NCBI RefSeq assembly: GCF_965641715.1
Contig: NZ_OZ282453.1
Origin: Escherichia coli
GTDB lineage: Bacteria; Pseudomonadota; Gammaproteobacteria; Enterobacterales; Enterobacteriaceae
Length of the DNA stretch: 64,000 nucleotides
Reading direction: 5' to 3' (one strand)
Position 1 is the stretch's first letter. The number at the start of each line of letters is the position of its first letter. Below are positions 25,545 through 43,640 of the stretch, one piece after another. The notes below the pieces were generated by a model. The model searched no databases and was not told where the DNA came from. It was given only the letters and a program-made list of their open reading frames with translations. Made by a program: the position numbers and the translations under genes.

Positions 25545-27548
25545 TCATCCTTGTTGCTGAAGCATGGGGAATAATTGTTCGCACAGCAAAACACCGTTAT
25601 TCATTGCTTCTACCCGTGCCTCGCTTTCTGTATTACGAAATTGTCCCAACATATGTGCCAGCCGATAAAAACCCACCGCGGTGAGGTCATTCGCCAGCAA
25701 CTCTGCCTGACCAATAGCACTCTGTTCCTGATAGCGCCAGCCGTTATGGAGCAGTTGAATAAGTAATGCCTGGCAGCGCATCAGCAACTGATGAGCAGTA
25801 GACGGCACAGGCAGAACGCTGGCAGAAGGTAGTGATGCCACCACAGGCGCAGTTTCTGCGTCCAGCGCCCAGGCACGAGTCTTTGTCATCATTACCTGTG
25901 GTTCCAGTGTCAATTGCCCATCAACAAAACTGACAAAGCCAGAAACCAGACACACGGGGTCGTCTGTTTGTTGCAAAAGCGCCGCCATGCGTTCAACGGC
26001 ATAAGGCGCGCTGGCTGAGGCTGGCAGTGATAACGTCAGCAGATTATCTTCACCTTCGCCGCTGATTACCTGCGCATCCAGCGTCTGGCGGCTGCTATCC
26101 CAACCGAGCGAAATACATTCAGCGACCGGCAGAATAAATAAGTTATCGACCTGATTAAGAGGCCGTATGCAGGAGGGGGGACGCTGGCGTAAATATTCCC
26201 GCAAAGCCACAATGCCCGGCTGGCGCAACGGCGCGCTCAACATTCGCCAGGCATCAGGCGACAGTGGAACAACACTACTCAAGCGGTTACGGGTCGCGAA
26301 CAGCAGTTCGCCTTCGGCACTGCGACGCGCTGCTTGTGAAACAATTTGCCCACCTGCCAGTGCGCCAGCCTGAAAACTAAACAGCCGACGCCTAGCTGCC
26401 GGTGAGTTTTCCTGTTCACTTCGCGGCCAACTGCGCGAAAGGTGCAAAATACTGCCGGTGTCGGGATCGGTAAACCAGATGCGTAAACCATAATGCTCAA
26501 TATCCTGCCAGCAACGCATACCTAAAGACACCAGCCGCAGATGATCAAGCTTTGCTTCTCCGGCAATGCCAGAGCCAACGACCGTGCGCCACGGCACAGG
26601 AGGAACTTCACCAACACTGTCGCGCCGGACCATCTCTTGTGCGCAATTTAATCGACTGTTTAATGCCGCAAGCTGACGTAAGCATTCTCCGGCATGATAG
26701 TGGCTGGCGCGGGCGTGGAAGGCATCAACGCTGGCGCGCAGTTGCCGTAGCGATTCACTCACCCAGCGCCAGTTGCAGGCCTCTGCCGCCTGCAATGCGC
26801 GGTTGAATGCTGCCTCGTAATGAATAAGCGGCTGGCTGATGCCGCTCAGCCATAATGCCTGGCTTAGTTGTTGAACATATTGACGACACGTTTTGCCTTC
26901 TTCGCTGGCAAACGGATCGTCAGATGATGTGACGTGTTCGCTGCGCATCTGCCAGATTAAATGAGTCAATTCCGCTTGCTGCGCTTTTGCCTGGACAAAG
27001 GCCTGTACTGCCAGTACGACATGTTCGCAAAGTGTGCCTTCAATACAATCACAACGGGCAAAACGAATGCTGCTACGGGAATAAAAACGCACATCGCTCA
27101 TCGGTAAGCGGGCAGAGGGAATTTCGCCCGGCGTACAGAACAACTCAATGGTGATGCCTTTAGCGACCAGCGCCTGTGCGCGTTTGCGGGTGGTATCGGG
27201 CAGGGTAGCCAGTTCTTCCAGCCAGATTGCCGGATCCCACTCTTCTTCTTTTTCCGTGGGCTGGACGGTGGCACAAAGTCGTTGATAACTTAACACCAGC
27301 ATCACGCGATGACGGCACATGCCGCTGGCCCCGCAGCTGCACTGAGCCTCTTTCAGTGCCTGGCCGTTCGCCAGCTGGGTACGGACACCGTCACTGAAGG
27401 TGGCGATTAAAGCGCCGTTCTCATGGCTGATTTCCGGGACGTTGCCATTTTCCAGTTCCTTAAGGCTGCGCTTAACAAAACCGGCATTGCTTAACGCCGT
27501 CAGGGCCTGCGGTGTCAGTTCTAATAATTCCGGACGTAGTGAATTCAT
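25545..27548 (-). CDS. yehQ: SWIM zinc-finger protein YehQ (two CxCxnCxH motifs)
   Basis: CSCGASGMCRH and CDCIEGTLCEH motifs; start chosen at the ATGA overlap with the yehP stop (alternative upstream start at 27572). Confidence 0.8.
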   Translation of the reverse strand: MNSLRPELLELTPQALTALSNAGFVKRSLKELENGNVPEISHENGALIATFSDGVRTQLANGQALKEAQCSCGASGMCRHRVMLVLSYQRLCATVQPTEKEEEWDPAIWLEELATLPDTTRKRAQALVAKGITIELFCTPGEIPSARLPMSDVRFYSRSSIRFARCDCIEGTLCEHVVLAVQAFVQAKAQQAELTHLIWQMRSEHVTSSDDPFASEEGKTCRQYVQQLSQALWLSGISQPLIHYEAAFNRALQAAEACNWRWVSESLRQLRASVDAFHARASHYHAGECLRQLAALNSRLNCAQEMVRRDSVGEVPPVPWRTVVGSGIAGEAKLDHLRLVSLGMRCWQDIEHYGLRIWFTDPDTGSILHLSRSWPRSEQENSPAARRRLFSFQAGALAGGQIVSQAARRSAEGELLFATRNRLSSVVPLSPDAWRMLSAPLRQPGIVALREYLRQRPPSCIRPLNQVDNLFILPVAECISLGWDSSRQTLDAQVISGEGEDNLLTLSLPASASAPYAVERMAALLQQTDDPVCLVSGFVSFVDGQLTLEPQVMMTKTRAWALDAETAPVVASLPSASVLPVPSTAHQLLMRCQALLIQLLHNGWRYQEQSAIGQAELLANDLTAVGFYRLAHMLGQFRNTESEARVEAMNNGVLLCEQLFPMLQQQG

Positions 27549-28681
27549 GACTGAAGATTCTCCGCAAGCCATGATGCCAGTTCGCCCGGTGTCATGGCGG
27601 CTATTTGTGCGCCGACATTAACCAGCGCCTGGGCCGTATCGCGGTCATAGCAAGGCGTTGCTGTGCTATCGAGCGCCGCCAGTCCCAGCACTTTGATGCC
27701 GCTCTGGACACACTTTTTCACCTGATGCGTCAGCAATGATGATGAACCCCCTTCGTAAAAATCGCTCACGAGGATAATGACGCTTTTTGCTGGTTGTTCA
27801 ATAAGTTGCCGACCATACTCCACGGCACTGGCGATATTGGTTCCGCCGCCTAATTGCACTTTCATTAATAACTCTACCGGATCGGCAACGTCTGCCGTGA
27901 GATCAACCACACTGGTGTCAAAAGCGACCAGATGGGTACGAATGCCGGGTAACTGCCATAAACAGGCCGCCATCACCGCAGAGTGGATCACCGAATCGAC
28001 CATCGAGCCGCTTTGATCAACCAGTAAGACCAGTTGCCATTGTTCGCTTTGGCGTTTAATGCGGCTGTTAAAGCGGGGGGATTCGATATACAACTTGCCG
28101 TGTTGTGGGTGCCAGTGTTGCAGGTTGGCGCGCAGAGTACTTTTGAAATCAAAGTTTCGCGCCAGTGGAATAAATGAGCGGCGACGGCGATCGCGGACAC
28201 CAGAAAAAGCCTGACGAACTTCCTTTGCCAGTCGAGCCATAATTTCTTCAACAACCTGGCGCACTATCCGGCGGGCGGCAGCCAGTACTTCGGGATTCAT
28301 CAGATGTTTGGTGTGCAAAACGGCGCGTAGCAGGCTTTCAGACGGTTGCATACGTTCCAGCACGTCGAGATTCGTCACCACATCTTCAATGCCATAGCGC
28401 AGTACGGCATCGCTTTCCAGCCGCTCAATCACCTGTTGCGGAAACAGCGTGTGAATACTGTTGATCCACTCAGGCGTGGTGAGATTTGAGCCACCTAATC
28501 CACCGGAGCGTTCACCACGCTGGAGCCGTTCAGGATCGCGCCCGTACAGCCACTCCAGCGCGTGGTCTATCTGCCGGGCGTTGTCATCCAGCCCACAAAG
28601 CGTCGTTTCTGCCGCTTCGCCAAGAATTAATCGCCAGCGTTGTAGCTCACGGGTGGTCAGAAGATCGTTCAGTTCAGACAT
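27545..28681 (-). CDS. yehP: von Willebrand factor A domain protein YehP
   Basis: MIDAS motif DxSxS (LLVDQSGSM); start at MSELNDLL overlapping yehM 3' end by 8 nt. Confidence 0.85.
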   Translation of the reverse strand: MSELNDLLTTRELQRWRLILGEAAETTLCGLDDNARQIDHALEWLYGRDPERLQRGERSGGLGGSNLTTPEWINSIHTLFPQQVIERLESDAVLRYGIEDVVTNLDVLERMQPSESLLRAVLHTKHLMNPEVLAAARRIVRQVVEEIMARLAKEVRQAFSGVRDRRRRSFIPLARNFDFKSTLRANLQHWHPQHGKLYIESPRFNSRIKRQSEQWQLVLLVDQSGSMVDSVIHSAVMAACLWQLPGIRTHLVAFDTSVVDLTADVADPVELLMKVQLGGGTNIASAVEYGRQLIEQPAKSVIILVSDFYEGGSSSLLTHQVKKCVQSGIKVLGLAALDSTATPCYDRDTAQALVNVGAQIAAMTPGELASWLAENLQS

Positions 28682-30953
28682 GGAAAACTCCCCAGTGTTG
28701 CAGCGATGCCAGTGCCTGCTGTTCGAGTTGTTGATGATGTGCAATGGCTTGTGGTGGACAATGCAACGGCATTTGCAGTGCCGAAACGGGAAGTTGCGCC
28801 AGTTGATAATGTTCAAGCACCTGATGCGCCAGCGTCCCGCGTTCTCGTGGTGGTAGCCAGGCCATCGCCGCGCGTAAATCGGGCAGGGCATTGATAAAAT
28901 CGGCATCACTTAGTTGATTTAAATGACTGCTGAAACCGGCGATAAATGCCGGCTGACAGGCCAGTTGATGACGGGCTAATGCCAGCAAACCGTGCAGCGC
29001 TTCGCCGGATTGTGCCGGGAAAAACTGTGCCAGCATCGCCAGCGCCGCTTCGGCACTGGCGTTGGGATGTTCCAGACGCATCAGTGCGCCAAGAGCCGCG
29101 CCGCGATCCAGCGCCGGGGCATGAATCGCCTGACTGCGTCGCTCCAGTAAGGCTACCGCCGCAGAAAGCGAAACGCCGGGTAAATTAACGCCGCTATGTA
29201 GATCGCGCAGGATATGGCAAAGCGCCTGCCAGCTATGCAGGTGAGCGTGAAACTCCTTTTCATCCGGTTTGCCGTTGGATTCACACAGCCAGAGCGTGCG
29301 ATCGATAGCCGCGCATAACGTCGTTTGTAATATCTGCGCGCCTTGCATACCGCTAATTTCATCCTGCCGCCATAAGGCATATAGCACTTCCAGCGCCTGG
29401 CCCATTTCGGCAAATTGATTTTCCTGGGCGATTAATAATGTGAGTTGCTCCAGTAATTGTTGACTGAAGGACGCCAGACCCGCTAACGCCGCCTGGCTAA
29501 GACATGTGGTGATACTGCCGATTCCACCCGCGTCCAGCATATCGGCTTCTAATTTATGGCGTGCGGCTCCCTGGAGTGTTGCACCAAAGCAGGCGGCCTC
29601 AATCAATGCCGCATGCTGGCTAAGCGGGCGGGTTAATTTCCAGCGTTCTTCACCGTTGCCTGCAAGTGTCAGTGTGCTTCCCTGCTGGCGTACAATCCCT
29701 GGGATCTCCAGTATTGCCAGCCGATGCAGCACCTGGCTTTGCGCCAGCCCATCGGAGGTAAAGCGATTTAAGGTAAGCTCCGCCGGAAGAGAGATTGTGG
29801 TACGTTCCAGTTCGCAAGTGACATCTTTTGGCAGAGGCGGTTGTGGCGTGGAGGGGGCTAGTTTACCGAATCCGTCACCCGCTAATGTGTCTATCAACGT
29901 TAGCAGAATCGGATCGGTGTCGGGATGAATAACTCCGCGATAGCTCCATGGCAACGGCGCATTCAGGGCTTCTTTAATCAGCGAGCCTGCGAAGGCATCC
30001 AGCCAGTCAGTGCGTAACGGCAGTGTATGACCGCGCAACTGTGCCAGCGCCATCGCATGCAGATGAGCGGCAGCCATATCCGCGGTCGAAGCAGGCAACT
30101 TGTGCTGGCGCAAACGGGTAAGGATAGTTTTTAGCAGTTGTTCTCCCGCCTGCTGTAAGCCCCACTGCCAGCACCAGCTTTGCCAGACCGGGGCAGGCAT
30201 TCCTGAAAGGTATCCTGCCAGCGCATCAAGGCGCTTTTCACTGTAGGGTGTGAGATAACAACCTGTAACGGCATCTGCCAGCGAGGGCAATTCTGGCTTG
30301 TTAATGTCCTGCGGGCATTCGCGCCACATTTTTGCCAGTGCCGGAGCGTGCCAGCCACCGCAGACGACTAACACGTCGCCATTATTTTGCTGCACCGCCC
30401 ATGCAATCCAGCGAGCCATAAAGGCTTCGCGCTGACGATTGAGTGCATCGCCGGGGAAATCGCCCCGCAGTTGGGCAAAATAGTGCGCCAGTGCAGAGGG
30501 TAATGCAGTTTGCTGGCTTTCATCTTCGAACAAGTGATCCCACAGGGTGTCGCTGTTATCCATGCGGGTGGCACGCAGCAGCAAGGTCTGGCTTTCCTCT
30601 TGCGTATCAGGCGAATCGTCCTCTTCTTCACTCTGTGCCCAGCAAGGCAAATCGATGAAGTAAGTTTGTGCCTGAATACGACGAGCGGCTTGTAGCGCCT
30701 GCCACTCCGGCGAAAATTCAGCAAATGGCGTCCAGGCACCACGCCCGGGGGCTGCACCGTCCTGATACTGGCAATAACTGTAAATAGCTACCGGAAGCTG
30801 GTGGGCTAAAAACAGTTCGTCTACCCGGTCATTAAAATCAGCCGGGCCTTCAATCAACACGTATCGTGGCCGCTGGCTTTCGATTAACGATTTCACCAGC
30901 CGGGCGCAGGCCGGGCTATGATGCCGGATGCCGACAATTAACGGCTCGCTCAT
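28674..30953 (-). CDS. yehM: uncharacterised 759-aa protein YehM
   Basis: start at MSEPLIVGIRHH 10 nt after the yehL stop with GAGGAAAG RBS; no motif I can assign. Confidence 0.85.
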   Translation of the reverse strand: MSEPLIVGIRHHSPACARLVKSLIESQRPRYVLIEGPADFNDRVDELFLAHQLPVAIYSYCQYQDGAAPGRGAWTPFAEFSPEWQALQAARRIQAQTYFIDLPCWAQSEEEDDSPDTQEESQTLLLRATRMDNSDTLWDHLFEDESQQTALPSALAHYFAQLRGDFPGDALNRQREAFMARWIAWAVQQNNGDVLVVCGGWHAPALAKMWRECPQDINKPELPSLADAVTGCYLTPYSEKRLDALAGYLSGMPAPVWQSWCWQWGLQQAGEQLLKTILTRLRQHKLPASTADMAAAHLHAMALAQLRGHTLPLRTDWLDAFAGSLIKEALNAPLPWSYRGVIHPDTDPILLTLIDTLAGDGFGKLAPSTPQPPLPKDVTCELERTTISLPAELTLNRFTSDGLAQSQVLHRLAILEIPGIVRQQGSTLTLAGNGEERWKLTRPLSQHAALIEAACFGATLQGAARHKLEADMLDAGGIGSITTCLSQAALAGLASFSQQLLEQLTLLIAQENQFAEMGQALEVLYALWRQDEISGMQGAQILQTTLCAAIDRTLWLCESNGKPDEKEFHAHLHSWQALCHILRDLHSGVNLPGVSLSAAVALLERRSQAIHAPALDRGAALGALMRLEHPNASAEAALAMLAQFFPAQSGEALHGLLALARHQLACQPAFIAGFSSHLNQLSDADFINALPDLRAAMAWLPPRERGTLAHQVLEHYQLAQLPVSALQMPLHCPPQAIAHHQQLEQQALASLQHWGVFHV

Positions 30954-30963
30954 GCATCTTTCC

Positions 30964-32052
30964 TCACGGCAGGCGGTGGCGGGCTTGATAATAAGCCTGC
31001 CAGTGAGCTTCTTTATGTGTGGCGACACGCTGTTCGAAGTAACGGCGCAGGCGCGCGCGATCTTCTTCGTTATCTTTGACGATGGTTCCGGCAATACAGT
31101 CCACCAGGTCGGCAGGCTCCCCCGCACGATTCGCTAAAAACCAGGCGCGGACGCCCACGGCGTGGGCCACGTTCACGGCTTCAGCCGTGGACATAATCGC
31201 TGTTAGTGTATCCATTGACGTTTTCTTTTCGCCGTTGGCACGCAGATCGCGGAAGGTGCGGACCAGTAACTCCAGTACCGCGTCAGGCACTTTATGCGGA
31301 ATACCGCTATGGGCCAGCAAACGCGCCGAAGCACTGGCGACAAGCTCCAGCTCCTGGGCGAAATCCATAATCGGAAAGACAGTTTCAAAATCGAAGCGAC
31401 GCTTTAGCGCAGCACTCATTTCATTGACGCCGCGATCGCGGGTATTGGCAGTGGCAATAATATTAAAGCCTTCTCGCGCATAGAGCTGACTGGCTTCACC
31501 TGTGAGTTCCGGTACCGTCATCACCCTGTCAGAAAGCATACCTAACAGACAGTCTTGCACTTCCAGCGGTGTACGCGTTATCTCTTCAAAACGGACGATT
31601 TTGCCGTCGCGCATTCCCTGGTAAAGCGGGGCAGGGACCAGCGCTTCCGTTGATGGACCATGATTGATAAGCAGGGCGTAGTTCCAGCCGTACTTGATTT
31701 GATCTTCGGTAGTAGATGCGCCGCCCTGGATGGTTAACCCGGCATCGCCGCTAATAGCGGTTGCCAGTAATTCAGACAGGAGAGATTTTGCGGTGCCAGG
31801 TTCCCCCACCAACATCAAACCGCGTCCGGTGGCAAGAGTGACTAACATACGTTCGACAGCGGAGGGACTAATCACCACTTTACGGCTAATATTTTGCGCG
31901 CTATCGCCAAGGATAAAAGCACGGGCCGCAGGCAAACTTAACTGCCAACCGGGCGGGCAAGGTGCGTTATCATTTTGTTTTAATTTTGTCAGTTCATCGG
32001 CGTATAACACAGCAGCAGGCGGACGCTGCAGATGATTATTCTGCGGTGACAT
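30964..32052 (-). CDS. yehL: MoxR-like AAA+ ATPase YehL
   Basis: Walker A LVGEPGTAKS, Walker B-like IVRFEEI, sensor-1 IIATANT; start at MSPQNNHLQ. Confidence 0.85.
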   Translation of the reverse strand: MSPQNNHLQRPPAAVLYADELTKLKQNDNAPCPPGWQLSLPAARAFILGDSAQNISRKVVISPSAVERMLVTLATGRGLMLVGEPGTAKSLLSELLATAISGDAGLTIQGGASTTEDQIKYGWNYALLINHGPSTEALVPAPLYQGMRDGKIVRFEEITRTPLEVQDCLLGMLSDRVMTVPELTGEASQLYAREGFNIIATANTRDRGVNEMSAALKRRFDFETVFPIMDFAQELELVASASARLLAHSGIPHKVPDAVLELLVRTFRDLRANGEKKTSMDTLTAIMSTAEAVNVAHAVGVRAWFLANRAGEPADLVDCIAGTIVKDNEEDRARLRRYFEQRVATHKEAHWQAYYQARHRLP

Positions 32053-32161
32053 ATATTCATCCCTGAAATGTATTAATGAAATAAACGATATTTTACGCGC
32101 AATAAATGTTTGGCGCATTAGTTGTTTGAGCGAAAAATATCTGGAAAGCAGATCACAGTAA

Positions 32162-32244
32162 ATAAAAAAACCTGCTGGTGAGGCAGGTTCTTTTATTTAC
32201 TACTTTGATGTTAAGTTACTGATACTGCAACATGGCATCTCAAC
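32162..32244 (-). ncRNA. orzO: putative type I antitoxin sRNA (OrzO-like)
   Basis: minus-strand promoter TTGCAA-17 nt-TATAAT; 5' end is a 19-nt near-direct copy (17/19) of zorO 5' UTR positions 32392-32410, so the RNAs can pair; 3' end at hairpin ACCTGC/GCAGGT plus U-run. Confidence 0.5.
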
Positions 32245-32250
32245 GAGCGA

Positions 32251-32301
32251 ATTATAACCACCTCGCGACCGTGTTGCAATTAAGATAATGAGATTTATAA
32301 T
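32251..32301. promoter_or_regulatory. overlapping divergent sigma70-like promoters sharing one palindromic -35 hexamer
   Basis: TTGCAA (32274-32279) is its own reverse complement; minus strand -10 TATAAT at 32251-32256 (17-nt spacer); plus strand -10 TATAAT at 32296-32301 (16-nt spacer). Confidence 0.5.
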
Positions 32302-32482
32302 CCTGACTGTTGGGAAGTTGCGCCGGATCGAACCCATTTCAAGTCCTGGCTACCGGACGGGTGGTGCCGCAGGTAGTGCTCTGATCCGGAGTGCAACATG
32401 GCGACTCAACATACGTAAACCAGTATCGACAGGCAGCGTAAGGGTAAGGTGCTGGTGTTGCGCTCCTTAATAAGGAGAGCGG

Positions 32483-32572
32483 ATGGACACGCTGACACAA
32501 AAGTTAACCGTGCTCATTGCTGTACTGGAGCTATTAGTAGCTCTGTTACGGTTGATTGATTTGTTGAAGTAA
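32483..32572 (+). CDS. zorO: type I toxin, 29-aa hydrophobic peptide (ZorO/ShoB-like)
   Basis: ORF MDTLTQKLTVLIAVLELLVALLRLIDLLK with AAGGAG RBS 5 nt upstream, verified codon by codon; long leader from predicted TSS near 32308; not in the ORF track. Confidence 0.7.
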   Translation: MDTLTQKLTVLIAVLELLVALLRLIDLLK

Positions 32573-32593
32573 CGGGCAAATTGAAACGCATCT

Positions 32594-32620
32594 AAGGGGG
32601 AAACCGCTTCCCCCTTTAAT
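32594..32620 (+). terminator. hairpin downstream of the toxin ORF
   Basis: perfect 9-bp inverted repeat AAGGGGGAA / TTCCCCCTT with 5-nt loop, weak T tract. Confidence 0.45.
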
Positions 32621-32680
32621 AAAGCTATACTCGTCATACTTCAAGTTGCATGTGCTGCGACTTGAATTATCTAGAGTATA

Positions 32681-32998
32681 TTATTCTATTTCTTGGTTGA
32701 ATATATTCTGTAGTTCACGATTAAAAATTGCTATTACAGTTTCAGGTGATTCACCTCGTAATTTCCGCTCATCAATACACTCATCTCTTATATAAATCAA
32801 CGCATCATTTATTAGCGGGTCAGCATCTTCTCGATCACGTTGATGAAATGTTGGATGTAGCCGGAATCGCTCCAGTCGATAGACGGAACCTGTAAATAAT
32901 TCAGAGCATTTATGGACCTCAAGTCTGAAGGAAAACGGATCTTCAGGTACAGGGACCTCATAATCGTAAATAGCAACCAGCTCTTTTTGCACGATCAT
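32681..32998 (-). CDS. yehK: uncharacterised protein YehK
   Basis: 105-aa ORF between yehI and the toxin locus; translation matches remembered YehK. Confidence 0.8.
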   Translation of the reverse strand: MIVQKELVAIYDYEVPVPEDPFSFRLEVHKCSELFTGSVYRLERFRLHPTFHQRDREDADPLINDALIYIRDECIDERKLRGESPETVIAIFNRELQNIFNQEIE

Positions 32999-33058
32999 CG
33001 CTTTCCCCGCTGGTAAGTCGTGTTGATAACGGGCAGTTGCATCACTGCCCGCTGTGTT

Positions 33059-36000: not shown

Positions 36001-36691
36001 ACCACTCCTTTGAATGGAGACTTGACCGGGAGCTTTCAAGACTGGCGAGTTCATTGGCTATTTCAGGCTTTTCCGGGAGGATCAGCGCAATAAAAGGACG
36101 GCGAATTTTGGGTATTCCTGGCAGTGCGGCAATGAGTTTATCGGCACAACGCTGCCAGCAACTTTCCTCTGCCAGCGACAGATGCTTACGCAAACGGAGA
36201 TCGAAATCGTTATAGGTCGCGGAGCCATAACCGTAGCCATAGTCCTCGTCCTGATACTGCAATGTCACTACCAGAGGATCACTCTCATAACACCGCGCAA
36301 TAAACTGGCGTGCAATCACCACCTCAGTCGCATATTCCAGCCCCTCTTGTTGGACGATTTCGTCGAGCAACTGTTGGCTGTCATTTTGCGCGATACAGGC
36401 TAGCGCCGCCATTGTCCGGGCCGGGATTGAGGGTTTGTGTTCGCCGATCAAGTTGATGGCCTGCGTGATGGCGGACTGCCACTCCAGTGAAAAATTTTCA
36501 TAACGCCAGACAATGTTTTTTTTCTTCTCAGCTTTTTTTAGCAATTCATCACCCAGTGTCTGGATGAGGCTTTCAGTGATAACAGGCGCTGGTTCGCCCG
36601 GCCAATTGCGATGGCTGAGTGGTGTTTTACCCTTTTTATATTTCAGTTCCAGTTGGGCGTTATCAGCCAGCCACGGTAATTCCTTGTCCAT
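33059..36691 (-). CDS. yehI: giant DUF4132-type protein YehI (no WGR domain)
   Basis: 1210 aa; C-terminal ~350 aa shares conserved blocks with the two downstream paralogs (WAF.AL...GDESTAR, LDFGPRQFTV, ADYE..PPF). Confidence 0.88.
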   Translation of the reverse strand: MDKELPWLADNAQLELKYKKGKTPLSHRNWPGEPAPVITESLIQTLGDELLKKAEKKKNIVWRYENFSLEWQSAITQAINLIGEHKPSIPARTMAALACIAQNDSQQLLDEIVQQEGLEYATEVVIARQFIARCYESDPLVVTLQYQDEDYGYGYGSATYNDFDLRLRKHLSLAEESCWQRCADKLIAALPGIPKIRRPFIALILPEKPEIANELASLESSRSSLHSKEWLKVVATDNTAVKKLERYWGLDVFSDREASYMSQKNHFGYAACAALLREQGLAAIPRLAMYAHKEDCGSLLVQINHPQVIHTLLLVADKNKPSLQRVAKYSKNFPHATLAALAELLALKEPPARPGYPIIEDKKLPAQQKARDEYWRTLLQTLMASQPQLAEEVMQWLSTQARAVLNSYLLAPPKPVIDGTDNSNLPEILVSPPWRSKKKMTAPRLDLAPLELTPQVYWQPGEQEWLASTESARYFSTESLAERMEQKSGRVVLQELGFGDDVWLFLNYILPGKLDAARNSLIVQWHYYQGRVEEILNGWNSPEAQLAEQALRSGHIEALINIWENDNYSRYRPEKSVWNLYLLAQLPREMALTFWLRINEKKHLFAGEDYFLSILGLDALPGLMLAFLHRPKETFPLILNFGATELALPVARVWRRFAVQRDLARQWILHWPEHTATALIPLVFTKSSDNSEAALLALRLLYEQGHGELLQTVANRWQRTDVWPALEHLLKQGPMDIYPARIPKAPDFWHPAMWSRPRLITNNQPVTDDALEIIGEMLRFTQGGRFYSGLEQLKTFCQPQTLAAFAWDLFTAWQQAGAPAKDNWAFLALSLFGDESTARDLTTQILAWPQEGKSARAVIGLNILTLMNNDMALIQLHHVSQRAKSSSLRENAAEFLQVVAENRGLSQEELADRLVPTLGLDDPQALIFDFGPRQFTVRFDENLNPVIFDQQNVRQKSVPRLRADDDQLKAPEALARLKGLKKDATQVSKNLLPRLEAALRTTRRWSLADFHSLFVNHPFTRLVTQRLIWGVYPANEPRRLLNAFRVAAEGEFCNAQDEPIDLPADALIGIAHPLEMTAEMRSEFAQLFADYEIMPPFRQLSRRTVLLTPDESTSNSLTRWEGKSATVGQLMGMRYKGWESGYEDAFVYDLGEYRLVLKFSPGFNHYNVDSKALMSFRSLRVYRDNKSVTFAELDVFDLSEALSAPDVIFH

Positions 36692-36700
36692 GCTCTTTCC

Positions 36701-39700
36701 TTATTCAAACAGGGCTTCAATATCGTTAATTAGCTCGCTGGCGGTGATGGCATCGAGTACGGAGAGCTGCGCTTCCTGTATTGAATTACTCCCCCAGCCA
36801 TAGCTTTCCGCTTTGCCTTCCCATAGCCACAGCTTGCTTAAGAGTTGCTCGGCACTCAGTTCGGCTGGCGACATGCCTACCGCAAAGCCTTCATCGATTT
36901 CCATGATTAACGACCAGCGGCCCAGAGGTTTGATCATCCAGCCGATCCAGCCTCCATCCTGTGGTTCGCCCTTTATCCAGCCTTTATTCGCCAGCCCCAT
37001 TACCCGACCGCTCGGGCATTTTCTGCCTGCCCAGCGGGTCAGTTCGCTGGCATTGCGCTCGGTTTCTGTCAGGGCGTAACTGTTACGGTCGAGCTGGCGG
37101 AACGGCGGTAGCAGTTCGTAGTCGGCAAAAAGCTGCCCAAATGCGGCGGCATCCGTCGGTGATATTTCCAGAACGTGAGGAATACCAACAGAGATATCGC
37201 CTTCCGGCAGGGTGAAAAGATCATCGTCAGCGGTGCTGTAGCTGTTATCTTCCGCTACGCGGAAGCACGTCAGTAGCTGGTTTTCGGTGCTATAAACGCC
37301 CCAAATCAGACGGCGGGTTAAGTGGTGTACCAGTGGATGTTCAACCAGGAAGAGCTGAAAGTTTTCTGGCGACCAGCGGCGACGCAGGCACATGGCGGAT
37401 TCCAACCTTGCTACCTGCTGGGCGGCGACGGTACGCGCATCTTTTTTCAGCAGTTTGTAGCGGTTAACAGCATCGTTCGCCTGTGATTCATCATCGCTTT
37501 TGTTTGGTTTGGGCAGGTCTTTCAGACGGCTGCCGGAAGCGTCACGCACAAACGGTTTTAAGGTTTCATCAAAGCTGACGGTGAACTGGCGTGGGCCGAA
37601 ATCCAGCAGCAACGAACCGTTATCATCCAGACTGAGATCCGGTGCTAACCGATCTTCAAGCTCCGCCACTGTCAGTTCGCGACTTTCAGCAATGTCGGCA
37701 ATTTTCTCTTTCGCCCGCTCCTGTAAAGCTTTGAATTTCAGTTTCTGAGCAATGCCGTTAAGCTGCATCAGAGCGATATCACTACCGATAGCGGCGAGAA
37801 TATCCAACCCAACGGTGGCGCGTTTATGCTGAGATTCGCCAGGCCAGGCGCGTATTAATGGCGTCAGTTTGCGAGCGGTGTCGTCGTTACCGAGAACACA
37901 TAACGCAGTGAACGCCCAGCTTTCTTTCGATGGTGCACCCGTAGTCAGCCAGGCGGTAAACAGATCCCAGGCAAATTCAGCCAGTGAGTCGGCGGTACAG
38001 GCATCTTTCACCTGCAATAATCCCGGATACAGCGCCTCTTCCTGAGGGAAGCGGAGCATTTCACCGAGGTGGAGGAGGGCGTTATCTGGCAGTACCTTGC
38101 TGCTATTTTTGAGTTTTGGGCGAGTCCATAATGGAGGTTGATAAAACAACGGTAAAGGGGGGATTTTCGCCGGGTATTTACCCACAGGACTGTTGTCGTT
38201 ATTTTTATTTTGAGTTTCCCAGGGCGGCGAGACTAGTACCATTGGTAGAATTTCTGAGTTTGCAAAATCTTCATTGCGACTATTCAGCAATTGCTGACAT
38301 TGTTGCAATAAATTTGCCGCTTGCGACGATAATCCGATGACTAATTTTTCGACCAATAAAGGATTTGCATTAAGTAATGAAACCAGCAACGTATGTTTGC
38401 GTTTATCATCTTTTTTTACCAATTCTTCGGCTAATGCCGCTATCGTGGCAGAAGGAAAATTTTCGGCACTTTTTATTAGTCGTTCATAACAGCGTTTATT
38501 AGTATCGGCGGCTTCGATGAGTGCCGTAATGGCCAACGGATGATTAATACATTTCAGTACGTCACCGCAATTATCTTCTTCAGCATAGGAAGCCAGGCGA
38601 GCCAGTGCCGCTATACCTTGTTCCCGTAATACCGTAGCTGACCAACTGGCACCATAGGTGTTAAATACATCAATGTATTGATAGTTCTCCAGTATTTCGA
38701 GCGTGAATGGATCTGTCGCTACCAGTTTCAACATTTCAAGTTGTGGAACATCTGCGACCTGGTGTAAACGATGTACGATCTCATGGGCCACTTCGGGTAT
38801 TTCTGGCATTAAAATGGCAATTAACGGTTGGCGATAGAGTGATATATCTGGTAACGCAACGAGTAATTTTGCAATGCAATTTTGCCATACTTCTTCTTCT
38901 GCTAGTGATAAATGTTTACGCAGACGTAAACTAAATTTGTCGTTATTCCTTCTATAACTGTCCTTGCTGCTATCTGCATAATTAATAAAGAAAGTCAAAT
39001 GTTCATCTTTATAGTCAAAATCGAAATCAATTTGCCACCAGAAGATGACAGTTTCAGTTGCGTATTCGATACCGAAGGTGCTTACAATTTCATCCAGCAA
39101 CTCGGATGAGGTTTCATCATTCCAGCCCTGACAAAAACATATTTCCAGAAAAGTAAGTACCGCCATAGTACGCGCGGGTATCTCAGTCTTTTGGGCCTTA
39201 ATTAAGCTGATTGCCTGGCTAATCGCATCAGCCCATTCATCAGAGCATGAGCTGTAATCGAAAGTCAGATTTTTATAATAATGATAAGTACGATTTGCCA
39301 ATCGGGAAATTAAATTTTGTTTTTCGGGTTTGGTTGGTTTTTTAACTGGCTCTCCCGGCCAAAGGCGGTGGCTGAGGGCATGGCGGGCAATATTCGGGGG
39401 AAGAATAATGGGATCGTTGTCTGCCAGCCAGGGTAAACCATTAGTTGCTGCCTGGCGATTTATTGAGGCTTTTTCCTCTGTGACCAGGACTTTCTTTGCT
39501 GAGGCATCATGTGAGTGAGCGTTAGCGTCTACTTGCTCCACATACCCCTTCTTCACCTTCTCCGCAATCAGCTTCAGTTCCACTTTTTCCGCCGCCGCAG
39601 CATCTGCAAAGCTTTTTACCTGACTTTGCCCGTTAGTGCCGACTTTACCCCAGGTTATATGCAGCTCGTTTCCCTGCTGCTCCACCGCCCAGAATTTATG

Positions 39701-39733
39701 TGATTTTTCGTCCTGATAAATATAGGTTTTCAT
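36701..39733 (-). CDS. WGR-domain plus DUF4132 protein, 1010-aa paralog of MolR/YehI
   Basis: N-terminal WGR-like module (KFWAVEQQGNELHITWGKVGT) and C-terminal module about 75% identical to the molR-like product by eye. Confidence 0.85.
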   Translation of the reverse strand: MKTYIYQDEKSHKFWAVEQQGNELHITWGKVGTNGQSQVKSFADAAAAEKVELKLIAEKVKKGYVEQVDANAHSHDASAKKVLVTEEKASINRQAATNGLPWLADNDPIILPPNIARHALSHRLWPGEPVKKPTKPEKQNLISRLANRTYHYYKNLTFDYSSCSDEWADAISQAISLIKAQKTEIPARTMAVLTFLEICFCQGWNDETSSELLDEIVSTFGIEYATETVIFWWQIDFDFDYKDEHLTFFINYADSSKDSYRRNNDKFSLRLRKHLSLAEEEVWQNCIAKLLVALPDISLYRQPLIAILMPEIPEVAHEIVHRLHQVADVPQLEMLKLVATDPFTLEILENYQYIDVFNTYGASWSATVLREQGIAALARLASYAEEDNCGDVLKCINHPLAITALIEAADTNKRCYERLIKSAENFPSATIAALAEELVKKDDKRKHTLLVSLLNANPLLVEKLVIGLSSQAANLLQQCQQLLNSRNEDFANSEILPMVLVSPPWETQNKNNDNSPVGKYPAKIPPLPLFYQPPLWTRPKLKNSSKVLPDNALLHLGEMLRFPQEEALYPGLLQVKDACTADSLAEFAWDLFTAWLTTGAPSKESWAFTALCVLGNDDTARKLTPLIRAWPGESQHKRATVGLDILAAIGSDIALMQLNGIAQKLKFKALQERAKEKIADIAESRELTVAELEDRLAPDLSLDDNGSLLLDFGPRQFTVSFDETLKPFVRDASGSRLKDLPKPNKSDDESQANDAVNRYKLLKKDARTVAAQQVARLESAMCLRRRWSPENFQLFLVEHPLVHHLTRRLIWGVYSTENQLLTCFRVAEDNSYSTADDDLFTLPEGDISVGIPHVLEISPTDAAAFGQLFADYELLPPFRQLDRNSYALTETERNASELTRWAGRKCPSGRVMGLANKGWIKGEPQDGGWIGWMIKPLGRWSLIMEIDEGFAVGMSPAELSAEQLLSKLWLWEGKAESYGWGSNSIQEAQLSVLDAITASELINDIEALFE
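39665..39718. repeat. 54-bp segment identical to 43475-43528
   Basis: direct sequence comparison of the 5' coding ends of the two WGR paralogs. Confidence 0.85.
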
Positions 39734-39745
39734 TGTTAAATCCTT

Positions 39746-42700
39746 TTAATCAAACAGTGATTCAATGTCGTTAATCAGCTCGCTGGCGGTGATGTCGTCG
39801 AGCATGGAGAAAGTGGGTGAGGATTGTTTACCATAGCGATCATAAGGGGCGGTGATTTTTACGCTTTCGACAGGCAGCAGGTCGCTATACCCCGTTTCGC
39901 CATAAATTAATGAAAAAGGTTCCGTTTCAAGTTCGAGAGCACCATAAGGGGTAGATTTGCGCATCGCATAAACGCTGCCGCTTTCTTCCAGACGTTGCCA
40001 GCCTCGGCGTTCCAGCCCGACAATGCGTCCGGCCTGGCAGAGACGTCCGTTCCAGCGTGACAATTCATGGACATTACGTTCGTTATCAGCAAGGTGGTAA
40101 CTACCACGTTCGAGCTGTTGGAAAGGGGGAAGCAGTTCGTAATCAACGTAAATTTGCCTGAATGCAGCGGCGGATTCAGGGGGGATTTCCAGCACATGCG
40201 GTATACCGATGTTTCCTGCTGGCAGCGTGAATAACTCATCCTGCGCATCGCTGTAAGTGCTGTCTTCTGCCACGCGAAAACAGGTGATAAGAGCGTTTTC
40301 ATCGTTATAAACCCCCCATAACAGCCGTCGGGTTAAGTGACGTACCAGCGGATGCTCCACCAGAAACAGGCGGAACTGCTCTGCCGTCCAGCGTCTGCGC
40401 TGGCACATAGCCTGTTCCAGACGGGTAATATGCTGGCTGGCGATAGCACGAACATCTTTTTTCAACTGTTTGAAGAGATTAACTGCGTCAGTTGCCAGTG
40501 TTTTATCATCGCTCTGGTTTGGCTTAGGTAAATCTTTCAGGACTTTGCCGTTTGCATCGCACACTACAGGTTTTAAGGTTTCGTCAAAACCAACGGTGAA
40601 TTTGCGGGGGCCGAAATCCAGTATCAGCGAGCCACTGCTATCAAGCCCTAAATCTGGAGCCAGGCGGTCTTCCATTTCAGCCATAGTCAGCCCACGGTTT
40701 TCAGCAACTATGTTGATTTTCTCGCGGGCATGTTCCTGTAATGCTTTGAATTTAATTTTTCGCGCGATGCCATTAAGCAGCATTAGCGCAACATCGCTGC
40801 CAATATCAGCTAATACATCCAGCCCGGACACCGCCCGTTTATGCTGGGATTCCCCAGGCCAGGCGCGGATAAGCGGGGTTAATTTACGCGCGGTGTCGTC
40901 ATTGCCTAAAATCCCAAGCGAAGTAAATGCCCAGTTTTCTTTTGCGGGTGCGCCAGCTTCTGTCCAGGCGGTATACAGATCCCAGCCAAATTCAGCCAGT
41001 GATTCGCGGGTGAAGATTTCTCTAATGATATCCAGCCCAGCGTAGGCGGTAATGTCGCGAGGAAAGCTCAGCATAGTGCCGAGGTGGCGCATAGCGTCAT
41101 CTGACAGAGGCAGGTTGTTACTTTTAAGCCGTGGTCTGCGCCATAAGGTGAACTGATAAAAGCCGGGCAGTGGGGCGATTTTAGCGGGATATTCTTCCAG
41201 CGGCTCGCTATCAAATAATGTTGCCAGCGCAGCTAAAACATCAGGTTGGTTATACCCCTGGGCGATTTCTTCAATCGTTTCTCGCTGGTTTAAATTCACC
41301 AGCAGACGAAGCGCCTGGCGGGCACAATCACGATCTTTTCCTTTTTTGCCCAAGGCCACAGGAAGTAGCCCGGCGGCAGCATGGCGTGGGAAGTTAGCCA
41401 GCCATTTTCGAGCATCTTCAGCAGACATTTTTTTCTGTAATCGCTGCGCCATCGGTAATGCTAATTCGCTGACGCCCAGGAAGAGGGTGAATATCCATAA
41501 CTGTTGTGGCTTACGTTGCAGACATTTCATAAACGCAGGAATGGCCGCATCACCAAAAATCGCCAGAATTTCTCTCTCGCCGGAGAATTGCTCTTCATTA
41601 ATTATTTGATTGAGAAAAGAAATAGCATGCTGAGTGGGTAGGAAGCAGAGCGCGTACAACTGCCAGTGTCTGCTTCCTTTGTTATGGTATTGCGCAAACT
41701 CGGCTTTCAGCGCGGGGAAATCGAAACGTAACAGGGCATCAACTGCGCTTTGTGGCATTATTTTTTTTTCGTATTGTTCTTCTCCGGTTCTGCGCCATTC
41801 CTTAAACCCCAGTCGCCAAAGGATTTGCTGTTCTGGCGTTAAAGGGATGAAAGACGTTTCCCAGCGTTCTTTTTTTATCGGTGGCAGGTCGGTAAATAAG
41901 GTTTGCTGTGATGCCTGATATTGCGCGATTTCACTGAATCTGGATATGTCAGTATGACTGATTAACTCTGTAATTCCTGGTGTGATATCCGTGACGGCAG
42001 GAATGGGAAGTACCGGTAAATCAAATACGGGTATGACATTCTTTTTCTTATTTATTACCCACGGTGGAGCGACAAGCAGCTCCGGCAACATATCCACAGT
42101 GGCATATTCACATTCTTCAGCTACTGGCAGCGGACGACATTCAGATAAGATGCCTGCCGCCTTAGCATTAACCCAGGGAATGACCTCGCATACTAACTCT
42201 GGCGTGGCGGTAATCAGTTTGACAAGCGCTTTACGCCACTCATTATTTTCATGTATTGCCAGCAAAGTAGCATAAGCGGCAATAGCCGCAGCGGGATGTT
42301 TTTGGCAGGCTTTGCTTAAGTATTCCAGGTGCTTTTTCTTGCCATTTACACCGAGGATCAGAATTTGAATCGCATCCGGGTGATTCGTTTTCCATAGCCA
42401 TTTGACAAGATCTTCAGTCTCGCTGATACGCTCGAAGAGATAAGTGGGATTGTCAGAATGCTCTTCCGTAAACTCAAGAAGTATCCGGCTTACACCGCGC
42501 ACCCCATTATTTGCCAGCAACATTGCCAGATAAGCGCGAAAATCATGATACAACGGTGGGAAGTCGTATTTTTCTGCTGTAGTCAGAGCGGCGTCATCGG
42601 TTACCACCAGTCTTAACCAGGTCATCGCCGGAACGTTTTGATCTGCATAACGTAGCGCCATAGCATTGGCAATATCCGGGCGTTCAGGGAGCAGTAACGC

Positions 42701-43543
42701 CGCAAAAGGTTGTCGTGCTGGGGATAGCGAGGGAATAGCAGCGAGTACTTTATCTACACAGCGTTGCCACTCATCTTCTGAAGCGAGTGAAAGATGATGA
42801 CATAGACGTTGATGCCAACTCGGTAGCGATTCTGCTTCGTGATTAGGTGGAATGATGGTGGTTACTGCGCCTTTTACTGGTTTATATTTGAGTTGAAGAG
42901 CGAGAAGGGCGATTTCAACGGCACTTTCCAGACCACAGCGAATGACTAAGTCATCGACCAGTTCATCTTGAGAGTAAGAGTTCCAAAAGCCCCAGAGCAA
43001 TGCTGCATCAGATTGCGCACTCCCTGTCGGTTGATTACCCTTAACTCGCATTTGTAACTCAGCAAAAGCCTGCTGCCAGTTTTCTGGATAAGAGCGGTAA
43101 TTGTTGTCGGGATCATATGCCCTGGTGTTATTCGCGATGCGCTTCCATATTTGGCCATCTTTGTACAGATAATTGATCTCTCTGGGGCGAGAGCGATGAG
43201 GAAAAGCAAATCGATTAATATCGTCAGTGACCGGAATGACTGCATCATCAGCCAGCCAGGGGCGTTGGTTTTTACTCTCAGGGGAAGTTTCAACTTCAGG
43301 AGTGGCTTTGGTAATGGGGGGGATATGCACGTTTGCTGAAGCATTTTCCACATAGCCTTTTTTCGTTTTCTCCGCGATAAGCTTCAGTTTCGCTTTTTCC
43401 GCTGCTGCAACATCAGCAAAATTTTTTACCTGGCTTTGCCCTTGGGTACCAACTTTTCCCCAGCTGATATGCAACTCGTTTCCCTGCTGCTCCACCGCCC
43501 AGAATTTATGTGATTTTTCGTCCTGATAGATAAAGTGTCTCAT
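39746..43543 (-). CDS. molR: WGR-domain plus DUF4132 protein, full length (MolR-like)
   Basis: 1265-aa uninterrupted ORF; N-terminal WGR (KFWAVEQQGNELHISWGKVGT); position directly downstream of metG. Confidence 0.85.
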   Translation of the reverse strand: MRHFIYQDEKSHKFWAVEQQGNELHISWGKVGTQGQSQVKNFADVAAAEKAKLKLIAEKTKKGYVENASANVHIPPITKATPEVETSPESKNQRPWLADDAVIPVTDDINRFAFPHRSRPREINYLYKDGQIWKRIANNTRAYDPDNNYRSYPENWQQAFAELQMRVKGNQPTGSAQSDAALLWGFWNSYSQDELVDDLVIRCGLESAVEIALLALQLKYKPVKGAVTTIIPPNHEAESLPSWHQRLCHHLSLASEDEWQRCVDKVLAAIPSLSPARQPFAALLLPERPDIANAMALRYADQNVPAMTWLRLVVTDDAALTTAEKYDFPPLYHDFRAYLAMLLANNGVRGVSRILLEFTEEHSDNPTYLFERISETEDLVKWLWKTNHPDAIQILILGVNGKKKHLEYLSKACQKHPAAAIAAYATLLAIHENNEWRKALVKLITATPELVCEVIPWVNAKAAGILSECRPLPVAEECEYATVDMLPELLVAPPWVINKKKNVIPVFDLPVLPIPAVTDITPGITELISHTDISRFSEIAQYQASQQTLFTDLPPIKKERWETSFIPLTPEQQILWRLGFKEWRRTGEEQYEKKIMPQSAVDALLRFDFPALKAEFAQYHNKGSRHWQLYALCFLPTQHAISFLNQIINEEQFSGEREILAIFGDAAIPAFMKCLQRKPQQLWIFTLFLGVSELALPMAQRLQKKMSAEDARKWLANFPRHAAAGLLPVALGKKGKDRDCARQALRLLVNLNQRETIEEIAQGYNQPDVLAALATLFDSEPLEEYPAKIAPLPGFYQFTLWRRPRLKSNNLPLSDDAMRHLGTMLSFPRDITAYAGLDIIREIFTRESLAEFGWDLYTAWTEAGAPAKENWAFTSLGILGNDDTARKLTPLIRAWPGESQHKRAVSGLDVLADIGSDVALMLLNGIARKIKFKALQEHAREKINIVAENRGLTMAEMEDRLAPDLGLDSSGSLILDFGPRKFTVGFDETLKPVVCDANGKVLKDLPKPNQSDDKTLATDAVNLFKQLKKDVRAIASQHITRLEQAMCQRRRWTAEQFRLFLVEHPLVRHLTRRLLWGVYNDENALITCFRVAEDSTYSDAQDELFTLPAGNIGIPHVLEIPPESAAAFRQIYVDYELLPPFQQLERGSYHLADNERNVHELSRWNGRLCQAGRIVGLERRGWQRLEESGSVYAMRKSTPYGALELETEPFSLIYGETGYSDLLPVESVKITAPYDRYGKQSSPTFSMLDDITASELINDIESLFD
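43475..43528. repeat. 54-bp segment identical to 39665-39718
   Basis: direct sequence comparison. Confidence 0.85.
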
Positions 43544-43640
43544 TCTGCATCCCTGTAATTTTATCCAGTTGAATGCAGATGCTACCAGTATTTATGCGGG
43601 TTAGAGAGAGACAAAATCGTAAGAAAACAACTTTAGGAAT

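Follow-up and report, generated by a model that had tools for sequence, protein, structure and literature searches.

Midasin is a eukaryotic AAA_5 ring that acts through its own MIDAS domain. In the bacterial MoxR–vWA counter-invader systems, an ATPase and a vWA protein occur together with a peptidase and a sensor that evolves rapidly (Kaur, Burroughs, Iyer, Aravind 2020, PMC7159879; PMC12839542), and SWIM, WGR, YehL and DUF4132 are unmentioned in the papers describing them (PMC7159879, PMC12839542). YehL of Escherichia coli is a named but uncharacterised subfamily of MoxR (PMC3893208). Here, a single stretch of Escherichia coli DNA of 64,000 nucleotides (nt), called the window below, was analysed, and within it the block at 25545-43543, in which the cassette yehLMPQ, yehK and three large genes encoding DUF4132 proteins lie on the minus strand. 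The block consists of eight long-standing E. coli y-genes, and the role of the YehL subfamily is unassigned. A first-pass annotation had proposed the whole block as one candidate conflict system, which would not hold if its sub-clusters proved phylogenetically independent and not co-regulated. It is proposed here that the DUF4132 genes and yehLMPQ very probably constitute a single functional unit, conserved in at least five bacterial phyla. The block is, in all likelihood, this one conserved multi-gene system with two lineage-specific insertions, zorO-orzO and probably yehK.

Linkage of DUF4132 genes with the yehLMPQ cassette

YehM (DUF5682), the probe used for linkage, is the most system-specific protein; at E <= 0.001, its homologues in a library of 1.84 billion proteins group into 2253 representative clusters. 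In a scan of one genome per species (100,044 species genomes), at least 554 carry a YehM relative. Eighty loci from Gamma- and Betaproteobacteria, Myxococcota and Actinomycetota were examined by scanning their six-frame open reading frames (ORFs) with hidden Markov models built and iterated from the window proteins. DUF4132 ORFs were found beside the MoxR–DUF5682–VWA–SWIM cassette in 72 of the 80 species loci, and in 58 of the 60 with adequate flank, that is, at least 5 kb on either side of the cassette. Except in two loci, they are on the strand of the cassette; the median gap is ~15 nt. The number of large DUF4132 ORFs varies: one in 41 loci, two in 20, three in 8 and four in 1. The WGR domain is present in 50 of the 80 loci and lacking in the other 30, and all four cassette genes, the VWA gene included, were detected in 75. 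Contig ends account for most of the loci without DUF4132. Two loci from Myxococcota metagenome-assembled genomes (L041 and L044) are true exceptions: neither has a DUF4132 ORF, although the flanks of the cassette measure at least 6.7 kb on both sides. In L041 all four cassette genes are present, and in L044 the SWIM (YehQ) ORF was not detected; the partner in these two loci may be another or a distant one. A sixth conserved family was sought around the cassette in the 80 loci, and only genus-level synteny was found.

Three gene orders were observed, with DUF4132 upstream of the cassette, downstream of it (Burkholderia) or inside it (Sinorhizobium). The order in Klebsiella is metG, WGR-DUF4132, DUF4132, AAA_5, DUF5682, VWA, SWIM, with a gap of 78 nt at the junction. 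In Serratia fonticola and Erwinia sorbitola, whose chromosomal contexts are unrelated, only one WGR-DUF4132 gene precedes the ATPase gene, at a distance of 60 and 31 nt, respectively. The WGR-DUF4132 gene of Burkholderia follows the SWIM gene. On a conjugative plasmid of Sinorhizobium, the DUF4132 gene stands between those for DUF5682 and VWA, and stop and start codons overlap. All five gene families are present in a Streptomyces locus and on a plasmid of Bacillus mycoides (Bacillota), and on an Iodobacter plasmid the system adjoins a type I restriction–modification system. The linkage spans Pseudomonadota (alpha, beta and gamma), Myxococcota, Actinomycetota and Bacillota.

The reverse co-occurrence was approached through plasmids, as searching the protein database with a DUF4132 domain profile gave, for the most part, pieces of split genes. 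In the plasmid collection (tblastn), the C-terminal half of DUF4132 matches 32 records, YehM matches 38, and 24 records match both; wherever coordinates or gene tables were compared, DUF4132 and YehM are adjacent. The sub-clusters are therefore phylogenetically linked rather than independent, since DUF4132 accompanies the cassette in nearly every adequately flanked locus, in unrelated contexts and in three gene orders. The keeping of linkage through three gene orders across at least five phyla is strong evidence of a functional unit.

Organization of the block and its insertions

The ORF listing and the annotated E. coli genomes compared confirmed that 25545-43543 holds eight intact genes, all on the minus strand, interrupted only by a plus-strand type I toxin gene, as had been described in the first-pass annotation; zorO is the sole plus-strand gene inside the block. 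The domain calls made at that stage (two SWIM fingers, DUF5682, WGR/DUF4132, MoxR ATPase and VWA) were upheld by Pfam and motif checks. The genes of the block, and the toxin–antitoxin (TA) pair within it, are as follows.

yehQ: 25545-27548, minus strand; 667 amino acids (aa), full length, two SWIM zinc fingers (Pfam SWIM)
yehP: 27545-28681, minus strand; 378 aa, VWA (CoxE-type), MIDAS intact
yehM: 28674-30953, minus strand; 759 aa, DUF5682, predicted N-terminal TIKI/TraB/ChaN/Ere-fold hydrolase-like domain, then HEAT-like solenoid
yehL: 30964-32052, minus strand; 362 aa, MoxR-family AAA+ ATPase (AAA_5; YehL subfamily)
OrzO antitoxin small RNA: 32164-32237, minus strand; Rfam RF02083 (OrzO-P), 88.8 bits against a gathering score of 60
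zorO: 32483-32572, plus strand; 29-aa type I toxin, ORF MDTLTQKLTVLIAVLELLVALLRLIDLLK
yehK: 32681-32998, minus strand; 105 aa, no family match
yehI: 33059-36691, minus strand; 1210 aa, WGR-less HEAT/ARM–DUF4132 paralogue (Pfam DUF4132 3.1e-47)
middle paralogue: 36701-39733, minus strand; 1010 aa, WGR–HEAT/ARM–DUF4132
'molR'-position gene: 39746-43543, minus strand; 1265 aa, WGR–HEAT/ARM–DUF4132 (Pfam WGR 5.7e-18, DUF4132 7.6e-50)

By spacing, there are two tight units. From yehQ onward, the gaps are -4, -8 and 10 nt within yehLMPQ, then a spacer of 628 nt, then 60, 9 and 12 nt among yehK and the DUF4132 genes as far as the 1265-aa gene; a further 140 nt lead to metG. The best identity of the whole block to any of 5426 complete E. 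coli genomes is 97.6%, and the E. coli lineage of the window is probably uncommon.

The spacer between yehK and yehL (32053-32680) holds zorO-orzO, previously described as a self-contained type I TA pair (PMC3919570), here with the same plus-strand ORF and antisense RNA in the yehK–yehL gap. OrzO has a strong intrinsic terminator (hairpin and T-run) lying between yehK and yehL, and divergent promoter-like sites are found at 32274-32301(+) and 32279-32251(-). An insertion at 32342-32662 is absent from K-12 (blastn). Corresponding to the 628 nt of the window, which has one zorO-orzO copy, the gap measures 1240 nt in the best-matching strain (L001 10508-11748), presumably the duplicated zorO/zorP form, and 306 nt in the zor-less K-12. 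The zor region is 99.7% identical to that of the baboon isolate PapM-32-1. Gene tables inspected for Klebsiella and other genera contain no zorO, the 80 loci not having been searched directly for it.

The small toxin had been counted among the components of the candidate system. This part of the proposal is not supported: zorO-orzO has inserted independently in some Escherichia/Shigella strains and does not belong to the conserved system. One may still consider zorO as the effector of the block, with the large proteins regulating a small membrane toxin, because it sits within the block and a membrane toxin ends many conflict systems. We give this explanation next to no credence, as zorO belongs to a TA pair regulated by its own RNA (PMC3919570; Rfam), is encoded on the opposite strand, and is missing from K-12, Klebsiella and the inspected gene tables of other genera. 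As for yehK, homologues were found only in the window and in L001, L002 and L010 among 90 loci, that is, only in Escherichia, and it is probably not a core component.

The MoxR, VWA and SWIM proteins and the fold of YehM

YehL has a Walker A motif, GEPGTAKS, and a Walker B-like motif, VRFEEITR, and its nearest solved sequences are AAA domains of midasin (3.3e-10); AAA_5 was called in all homologous loci with inspected gene tables. Both marks of a MoxR protein were found, namely an AAA_5 domain with Walker motifs and a VWA partner encoded two genes downstream (yehP). Matches of YehL to GvpN and MadB in NCBIfam are weak, and NCBIfam was otherwise uninformative for all eight proteins. In YehP, an unfused VWA protein, the MIDAS motifs DQSGS...GGGT...SD are intact, and its homologues are called VWA_CoxE/VWA_2. 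The two SWIM motifs of YehQ, CSCGASGMCRH and CDCIEGTLCEH, both follow the pattern CxCxnCxH. No meaningful match was obtained in PDB sequence searches with YehQ, YehP, the DUF4132 profile and the YehM profile; a match to 1ygm (E 0.65, 63 residues) looks like chance.

The structural model of YehM, built from an 18-sequence alignment, is confident (predicted local distance difference test score, pLDDT, 87.4; predicted template modelling score, pTM, 0.82). According to this model, the N-terminal domain is an alpha/beta domain with a parallel beta-sheet core and is assigned to the TIKI/TraB/ChaN/erythromycin-esterase hydrolase fold, and the remainder forms a HEAT-like solenoid. The TIKI superfamily includes Tiki, TraB/PrgY, erythromycin esterases, ChaN, HopBA1, RRSP and PMT C1/C2, and its active members have a 2His/2Glu motif and a conserved basic residue (PMC6254334). 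In 18 diverse YehM homologues, R10-H11-H12, E35, H51, R175-E176 and G-G-x-H202 are invariant, and this His/Glu/Arg set appears to resemble the TIKI catalytic residues. Because of these invariant residues, it is plausible that YehM is a hydrolase, possibly a protease. Arg10 appears to sit at the position of the first TIKI Glu.

The CoxE type of the YehP VWA domain raises the question of whether the system is a classical MoxR–VWA chaperone for assembly or cofactor insertion, of the CoxD/E, NorQ/D or RavA/ViaA kind, with a DUF4132 protein or an unlinked enzyme as its client. The MoxR proteins characterised to date are maturation chaperones (PMC3893208), and the historical annotation of molR, 'molybdate metabolism regulator', points the same way; in Deinococcus, however, the molybdenum genes are not co-regulated (PMC8533742). 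We consider a chaperone of this kind improbable, since the surroundings of the system in the 80 loci show no conserved enzyme or cofactor gene, the genomic contexts vary freely, and the client-like partner is hypervariable and multiplied. To our knowledge, the known maturation systems also have no place for a TIKI-type hydrolase or for SWIM fingers.

The DUF4132 partner proteins and their variation between strains

The DUF4132 proteins consist of a WGR domain, which is optional, a HEAT/ARM solenoid and a conserved C-terminal half. In the model of the 1010-aa protein (pLDDT 85.5), a disordered linker (residues 71-98) is followed by the HEAT/ARM solenoid. The WGR domain of the partners matches the WGR of PARP1/3, the solenoid matches HEAT/ARM proteins, and the C-terminal alpha/beta region holds the most conserved residues of the family. 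YehI aligns with the 'molR'-position protein from residue 95 onward.

Of 5426 complete E. coli genomes, 5425 have the locus. A match to at least 80% of the block in one place was obtained for only 723, and a full-length middle gene is found in only 407. The window has three partner genes, compared with two in Nissle and K-12. The difference is concentrated in one segment.

Strain-variable 5.2-kb segment: 38175-43347, minus strand; replaces ~2.1 kb of K-12/Nissle (blastn)

This segment, made up of an extra WGR-DUF4132 gene and a replaced N-terminal half of the next gene, takes in most of the 1265-aa gene and the N-terminal half of the 1010-aa gene, and its GC content is 0.42-0.51, compared with 0.54-0.565 for yehLMPQ. 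A 203-nt repeat of the WGR start, at 43347-43543 and 39532-39734, marks a duplication. When the middle protein is compared with that of Nissle, the C-terminal 495 residues are 93.5% identical and the N-terminal 512 residues 46%; between paralogues, the N-terminal halves share 35% and the C-terminal halves 60% identity. Judged from these alignments, the N-terminal halves of DUF4132 proteins are swapped between E. coli strains. The gene called molR in the first-pass annotation occupies the molR position, but its product shows no more than 44% identity to the one that E. coli usually encodes there (Nissle). It is a divergent allele or a paralogue, with nothing beyond the promoter and the first ~200 nt in common.

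Loss and decay of the genes are common. In K-12 (L002 4475-8270, 17101-18945), all that is left of yehF is a WGR fragment, yehH has become a pseudogene and the yehQ product is shortened to 614 aa; yehI is split in a lineage represented by 853 database members. Lineages 2 and 3 of Shigella sonnei lost yehM-yehL-zorO (PMC12795559), and a resistance transposon is located in the DUF4132 region of the ST131 sublineage L1a (PMC9334617). YehM is mostly intact: its full-length clusters comprise 14,594 and 4,681 members, and truncated sequences number a few thousand. K-12, with its partner pseudogenes and truncated yehQ, is a poor model, and its phenotypes cannot stand for those of the intact system.

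Apparently exchangeable partners

Plasmid records matched by only one of the two probes show DUF4132 and the cassette apart. Eight DUF4132-only records encode distant stand-alone proteins (22-42% identity). On a Rhodococcus plasmid (L099 9343-19253), such a protein is encoded beside Wadjet (JetABCD) and a GIY-YIG nuclease, and on an Acetobacter plasmid (L100 5391-16467) between BrnT/A and VapBC toxin–antitoxin modules, in both cases with no MoxR cassette; in one Bacteroidota plasmid it stands alone. The Rhodococcus and Acetobacter settings are defence-island-like. The fourteen YehM-only records contain distant cassettes (25-30% identity). In the two that were inspected, from plasmids of Deinococcus taeanensis (L097 3759-11805) and Rhizobium sp. 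Kim5 (L098 4518-11451), genes for SWIM and DUF5691 proteins precede those for the ATPase, DUF5682 and VWA, and DUF4132 is missing. It seems that DUF5691 takes the place of the DUF4132 partner in a sister system, called here type B, as opposed to type A with DUF4132. No homology signal was found by hhalign between DUF5691, represented by a profile of only two sequences, and either DUF4132 or the C-terminus of YehQ, and the type B SWIM protein gave no alignment with YehQ. The picture that arises is one of an invariant engine with an exchangeable partner module, either DUF4132 or DUF5691.

Regulation

A regulatory site of the SOS type precedes the first partner gene.

LexA (SOS) box AACTGGATAAAATTACAGGG: 43551..43570, minus strand; immediately upstream of the 1265-aa WGR-DUF4132 gene

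Its core, CTGTAATTTTATCCAG, at 43553-43568, has the form CTGG-N8-ACAG with an AT-rich centre and lies 10 nt upstream of the ATG. The box is identical in K-12 and Nissle, a box is found at -25 in Klebsiella and Intestinirhabdus, and molR is listed among known SOS-box genes (PMC6590174). When LexA or Cheo boxes were sought in 53 upstream regions, 3 had any match, one of them an irrelevant actinobacterial one; otherwise the matches are restricted to Enterobacteriaceae. SOS control is thus not a general property of the system and is limited to the promoter of the first partner gene in Enterobacteriaceae. Mitomycin C induces, by way of IrrE/DdrO, both a DUF4132 protein and a WGR protein of Deinococcus radiodurans (PMC8533742), which is an independent link of DUF4132/WGR to DNA damage.

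These data invite the explanation that the system is a DNA-damage response with no conflict role, in which SOS-induced WGR–DUF4132 proteins would recognise DNA breaks or stalled complexes and the MoxR–VWA–TIKI–SWIM engine would extract or degrade DNA-bound protein for repair. The box kept at molR in Escherichia, Klebsiella and Intestinirhabdus (PMC6590174), the mitomycin C induction in Deinococcus (PMC8533742), the match of the WGR fold to PARP1/3 and the core status of the locus in E. coli all agree with it. SWIM fingers, too, occur in DNA-associated proteins, and YehQ has two of them. We nevertheless regard this explanation as unlikely. Hypervariable N-terminal halves, paralogue expansion and cassette swapping would be unusual for a repair factor, WGR is missing in 30 of 80 loci, no SOS-type box was found outside Enterobacteriaceae in the 53 upstream regions, and the engine genes are silenced by H-NS rather than controlled by SOS. 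Moreover, no repair defects are known for K-12, S. sonnei and ST131 L1a, where the system has been lost or has decayed.

The second half of the block is under different control. Both yehL and yehM are derepressed in hns/stpA mutants, with an intergenic H-NS site (PMC3686432), and yehL was among the differentially transcribed genes in a run-off transcription study (PMC3141248); the spacer between yehK and yehL is AT-rich (GC 0.42 over 32000-32999). The expectation that the two halves are co-regulated was not borne out in any obvious way in E. coli, where the SOS box is located at molR, H-NS/StpA act at yehL/yehM, and the OrzO terminator lies between them. The terminator probably stops read-through into yehL. 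Because of it, and of the differing regulators, co-transcription of the whole block seems unlikely here. The short gaps seen in other genera point to one operon there.

It could be argued from the same data that molR-yehI-yehK and yehLMPQ are two unrelated operons that are merely neighbours in E. coli, with the toxin marking their boundary; the 628-nt gap with its antisense TA locus and strong terminator, and the difference between the documented regulators of the two halves, would fit such a view. It is very improbable, however, given that the adjacency is kept across Pseudomonadota, Myxococcota, Actinomycetota and Bacillota, with gaps of 30-80 nt or overlaps and in three gene orders.

Possible mechanism and role

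As the overall best explanation, we propose a MoxR–VWA-centred system triggered by stress or by an invader, rather than an enzyme-maturation chaperone, and we give this proposal about an even chance of being right. The division of roles that we infer for its components is held with moderate confidence. In it, the WGR–HEAT–DUF4132 proteins would be the sensing or target-recruiting arm, with WGR binding nucleic-acid ends or breaks and the strain-variable solenoid binding a variable ligand, and their conserved C-terminal half would dock onto the invariant engine, perhaps with its invariant acidic DYE motif at the MIDAS of YehP. The MIDAS of the VWA protein and the midasin-like MoxR ring would then pull on or remodel the complex using ATP, and the TIKI-type domain of YehM would carry out a hydrolytic, probably proteolytic, step. 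In Escherichia and Klebsiella, cleavage of LexA in the SOS response would turn on the partner genes, and H-NS would silence the engine genes.

A role in conflict or defence is a serious possibility, although we would not call it probable. It is supported by the diversification of the partners, the expansion of paralogues, modular exchange, decay, and some plasmid and defence-island contexts. In its most specific form, which is put forward only tentatively, the system would be an immune-like MoxR–VWA machine. Its hypervariable WGR–HEAT–DUF4132 receptors would sense either nucleic acid that is foreign or broken or a protein of the invader, and an engine of AAA+, MIDAS, TIKI protease and SWIM components would give a proteolytic response. 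The receptor module would be either DUF4132 or DUF5691, and the machine would be core but often decaying in E. coli.

Several observations weigh against the overall explanation, its conflict role included. The locus is core and fixed in position in E. coli (5425/5426) and in Klebsiella; defence systems are mostly accessory. In Serratia, Erwinia and Burkholderia, ordinary metabolic genes flank the system on the chromosome, phages have essentially no homologues, and none of the 8 proteins matches a family in PADLOC-DB v2.0.0 at E <= 0.01. The DUF4132-only and YehM-only plasmid records described above depart from the linkage, the terminator and 628 nt part the two halves in this strain, and the SOS-type boxes are confined to Enterobacteriaceae. 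As to the individual proteins, the alpha/beta domain of DUF4132 matched nothing in a comparison with solved structures, and its role is therefore a guess. Catalysis by YehM is not assured, as Arg replaces the first Glu of the E-x-H motif; ChaN and PMT share the TIKI fold, yet they are not hydrolases. The link from component to phenotype rests on no experiment for these proteins.

Comparison with known systems

The five-family system, the TIKI fold of YehM and the split into type A (DUF4132) and type B (DUF5691) were not found described in the searchable literature, where DUF4132 is named in only four papers and no mention of DUF5682 was found. What was already known is the gene annotation and the YehL subfamily of MoxR; what is new is the linkage of five families, the predicted TIKI-type fold of YehM, the partner architecture with swapped N-terminal halves, and the DUF5691 sister system. 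With the linkage, the YehM fold and the modular partners, whose N-terminal half is swappable and whose docking half is conserved, what was a list of DUFs becomes a machine that can be tested. If the DNA-damage explanation is true, a large unexplored branch would be added to the SOS response; if the conflict explanation is true, the system would represent a new architecture among MoxR–vWA immune systems and a bacterial use of PARP-type WGR.

Individual components can be compared with solved or described proteins. YehM differs from the TIKI superfamily in that it has no sequence-level match to it, Pfam giving only DUF5682, and in that its domain is fused to a long HEAT-like solenoid and encoded within a MoxR operon. 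The WGR-bearing partners differ from PARP and from bacterial WGR proteins (2ra8, Bacteroides fragilis), as they have no ADP-ribosyltransferase domain and their WGR is optional, YehI being without it. With midasin/Rea1, RavA–ViaA, CoxD–CoxE and NorQ–NorD, the system shares an AAA_5/MoxR ring and a MIDAS-bearing VWA; it is distinguished from midasin and the MoxR–VWA pairs by three more obligatory partners (DUF5682, SWIM and DUF4132) and by having no linked client enzyme.

The MoxR–vWA ternary counter-invader systems are likewise close in organization. Common to both are a MoxR AAA+ protein, a vWA partner, a peptidase-type activity (predicted here) and a large, fast-evolving, sensor-like protein, as well as a patchy spread, weighted to large-genome Actinomycetes, Myxobacteria and Burkholderiales, and variation of paralogues. 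The diversifying sensor and the patchy distribution typical of these systems are both seen here, with 46% against 93.5% identity in the two halves of the partner, one to four paralogues, and at least 554 carriers among 100,044 species. A third component of the VMAP, iSTAND, beta-propeller or similar kind, together with a vWA-peptidase fusion, was not found in the yeh system. Here the vWA is not fused to a peptidase, and the hydrolase-like TIKI/TraB fold is predicted on a separate protein, YehM. The sensors are WGR–HEAT–DUF4132 proteins in place of iSTAND, beta-propeller or VMAP, and the SWIM protein is obligatory. By analogy, the yeh/DUF4132 system would work like a member of the MoxR–vWA ternary class while standing outside its described types.

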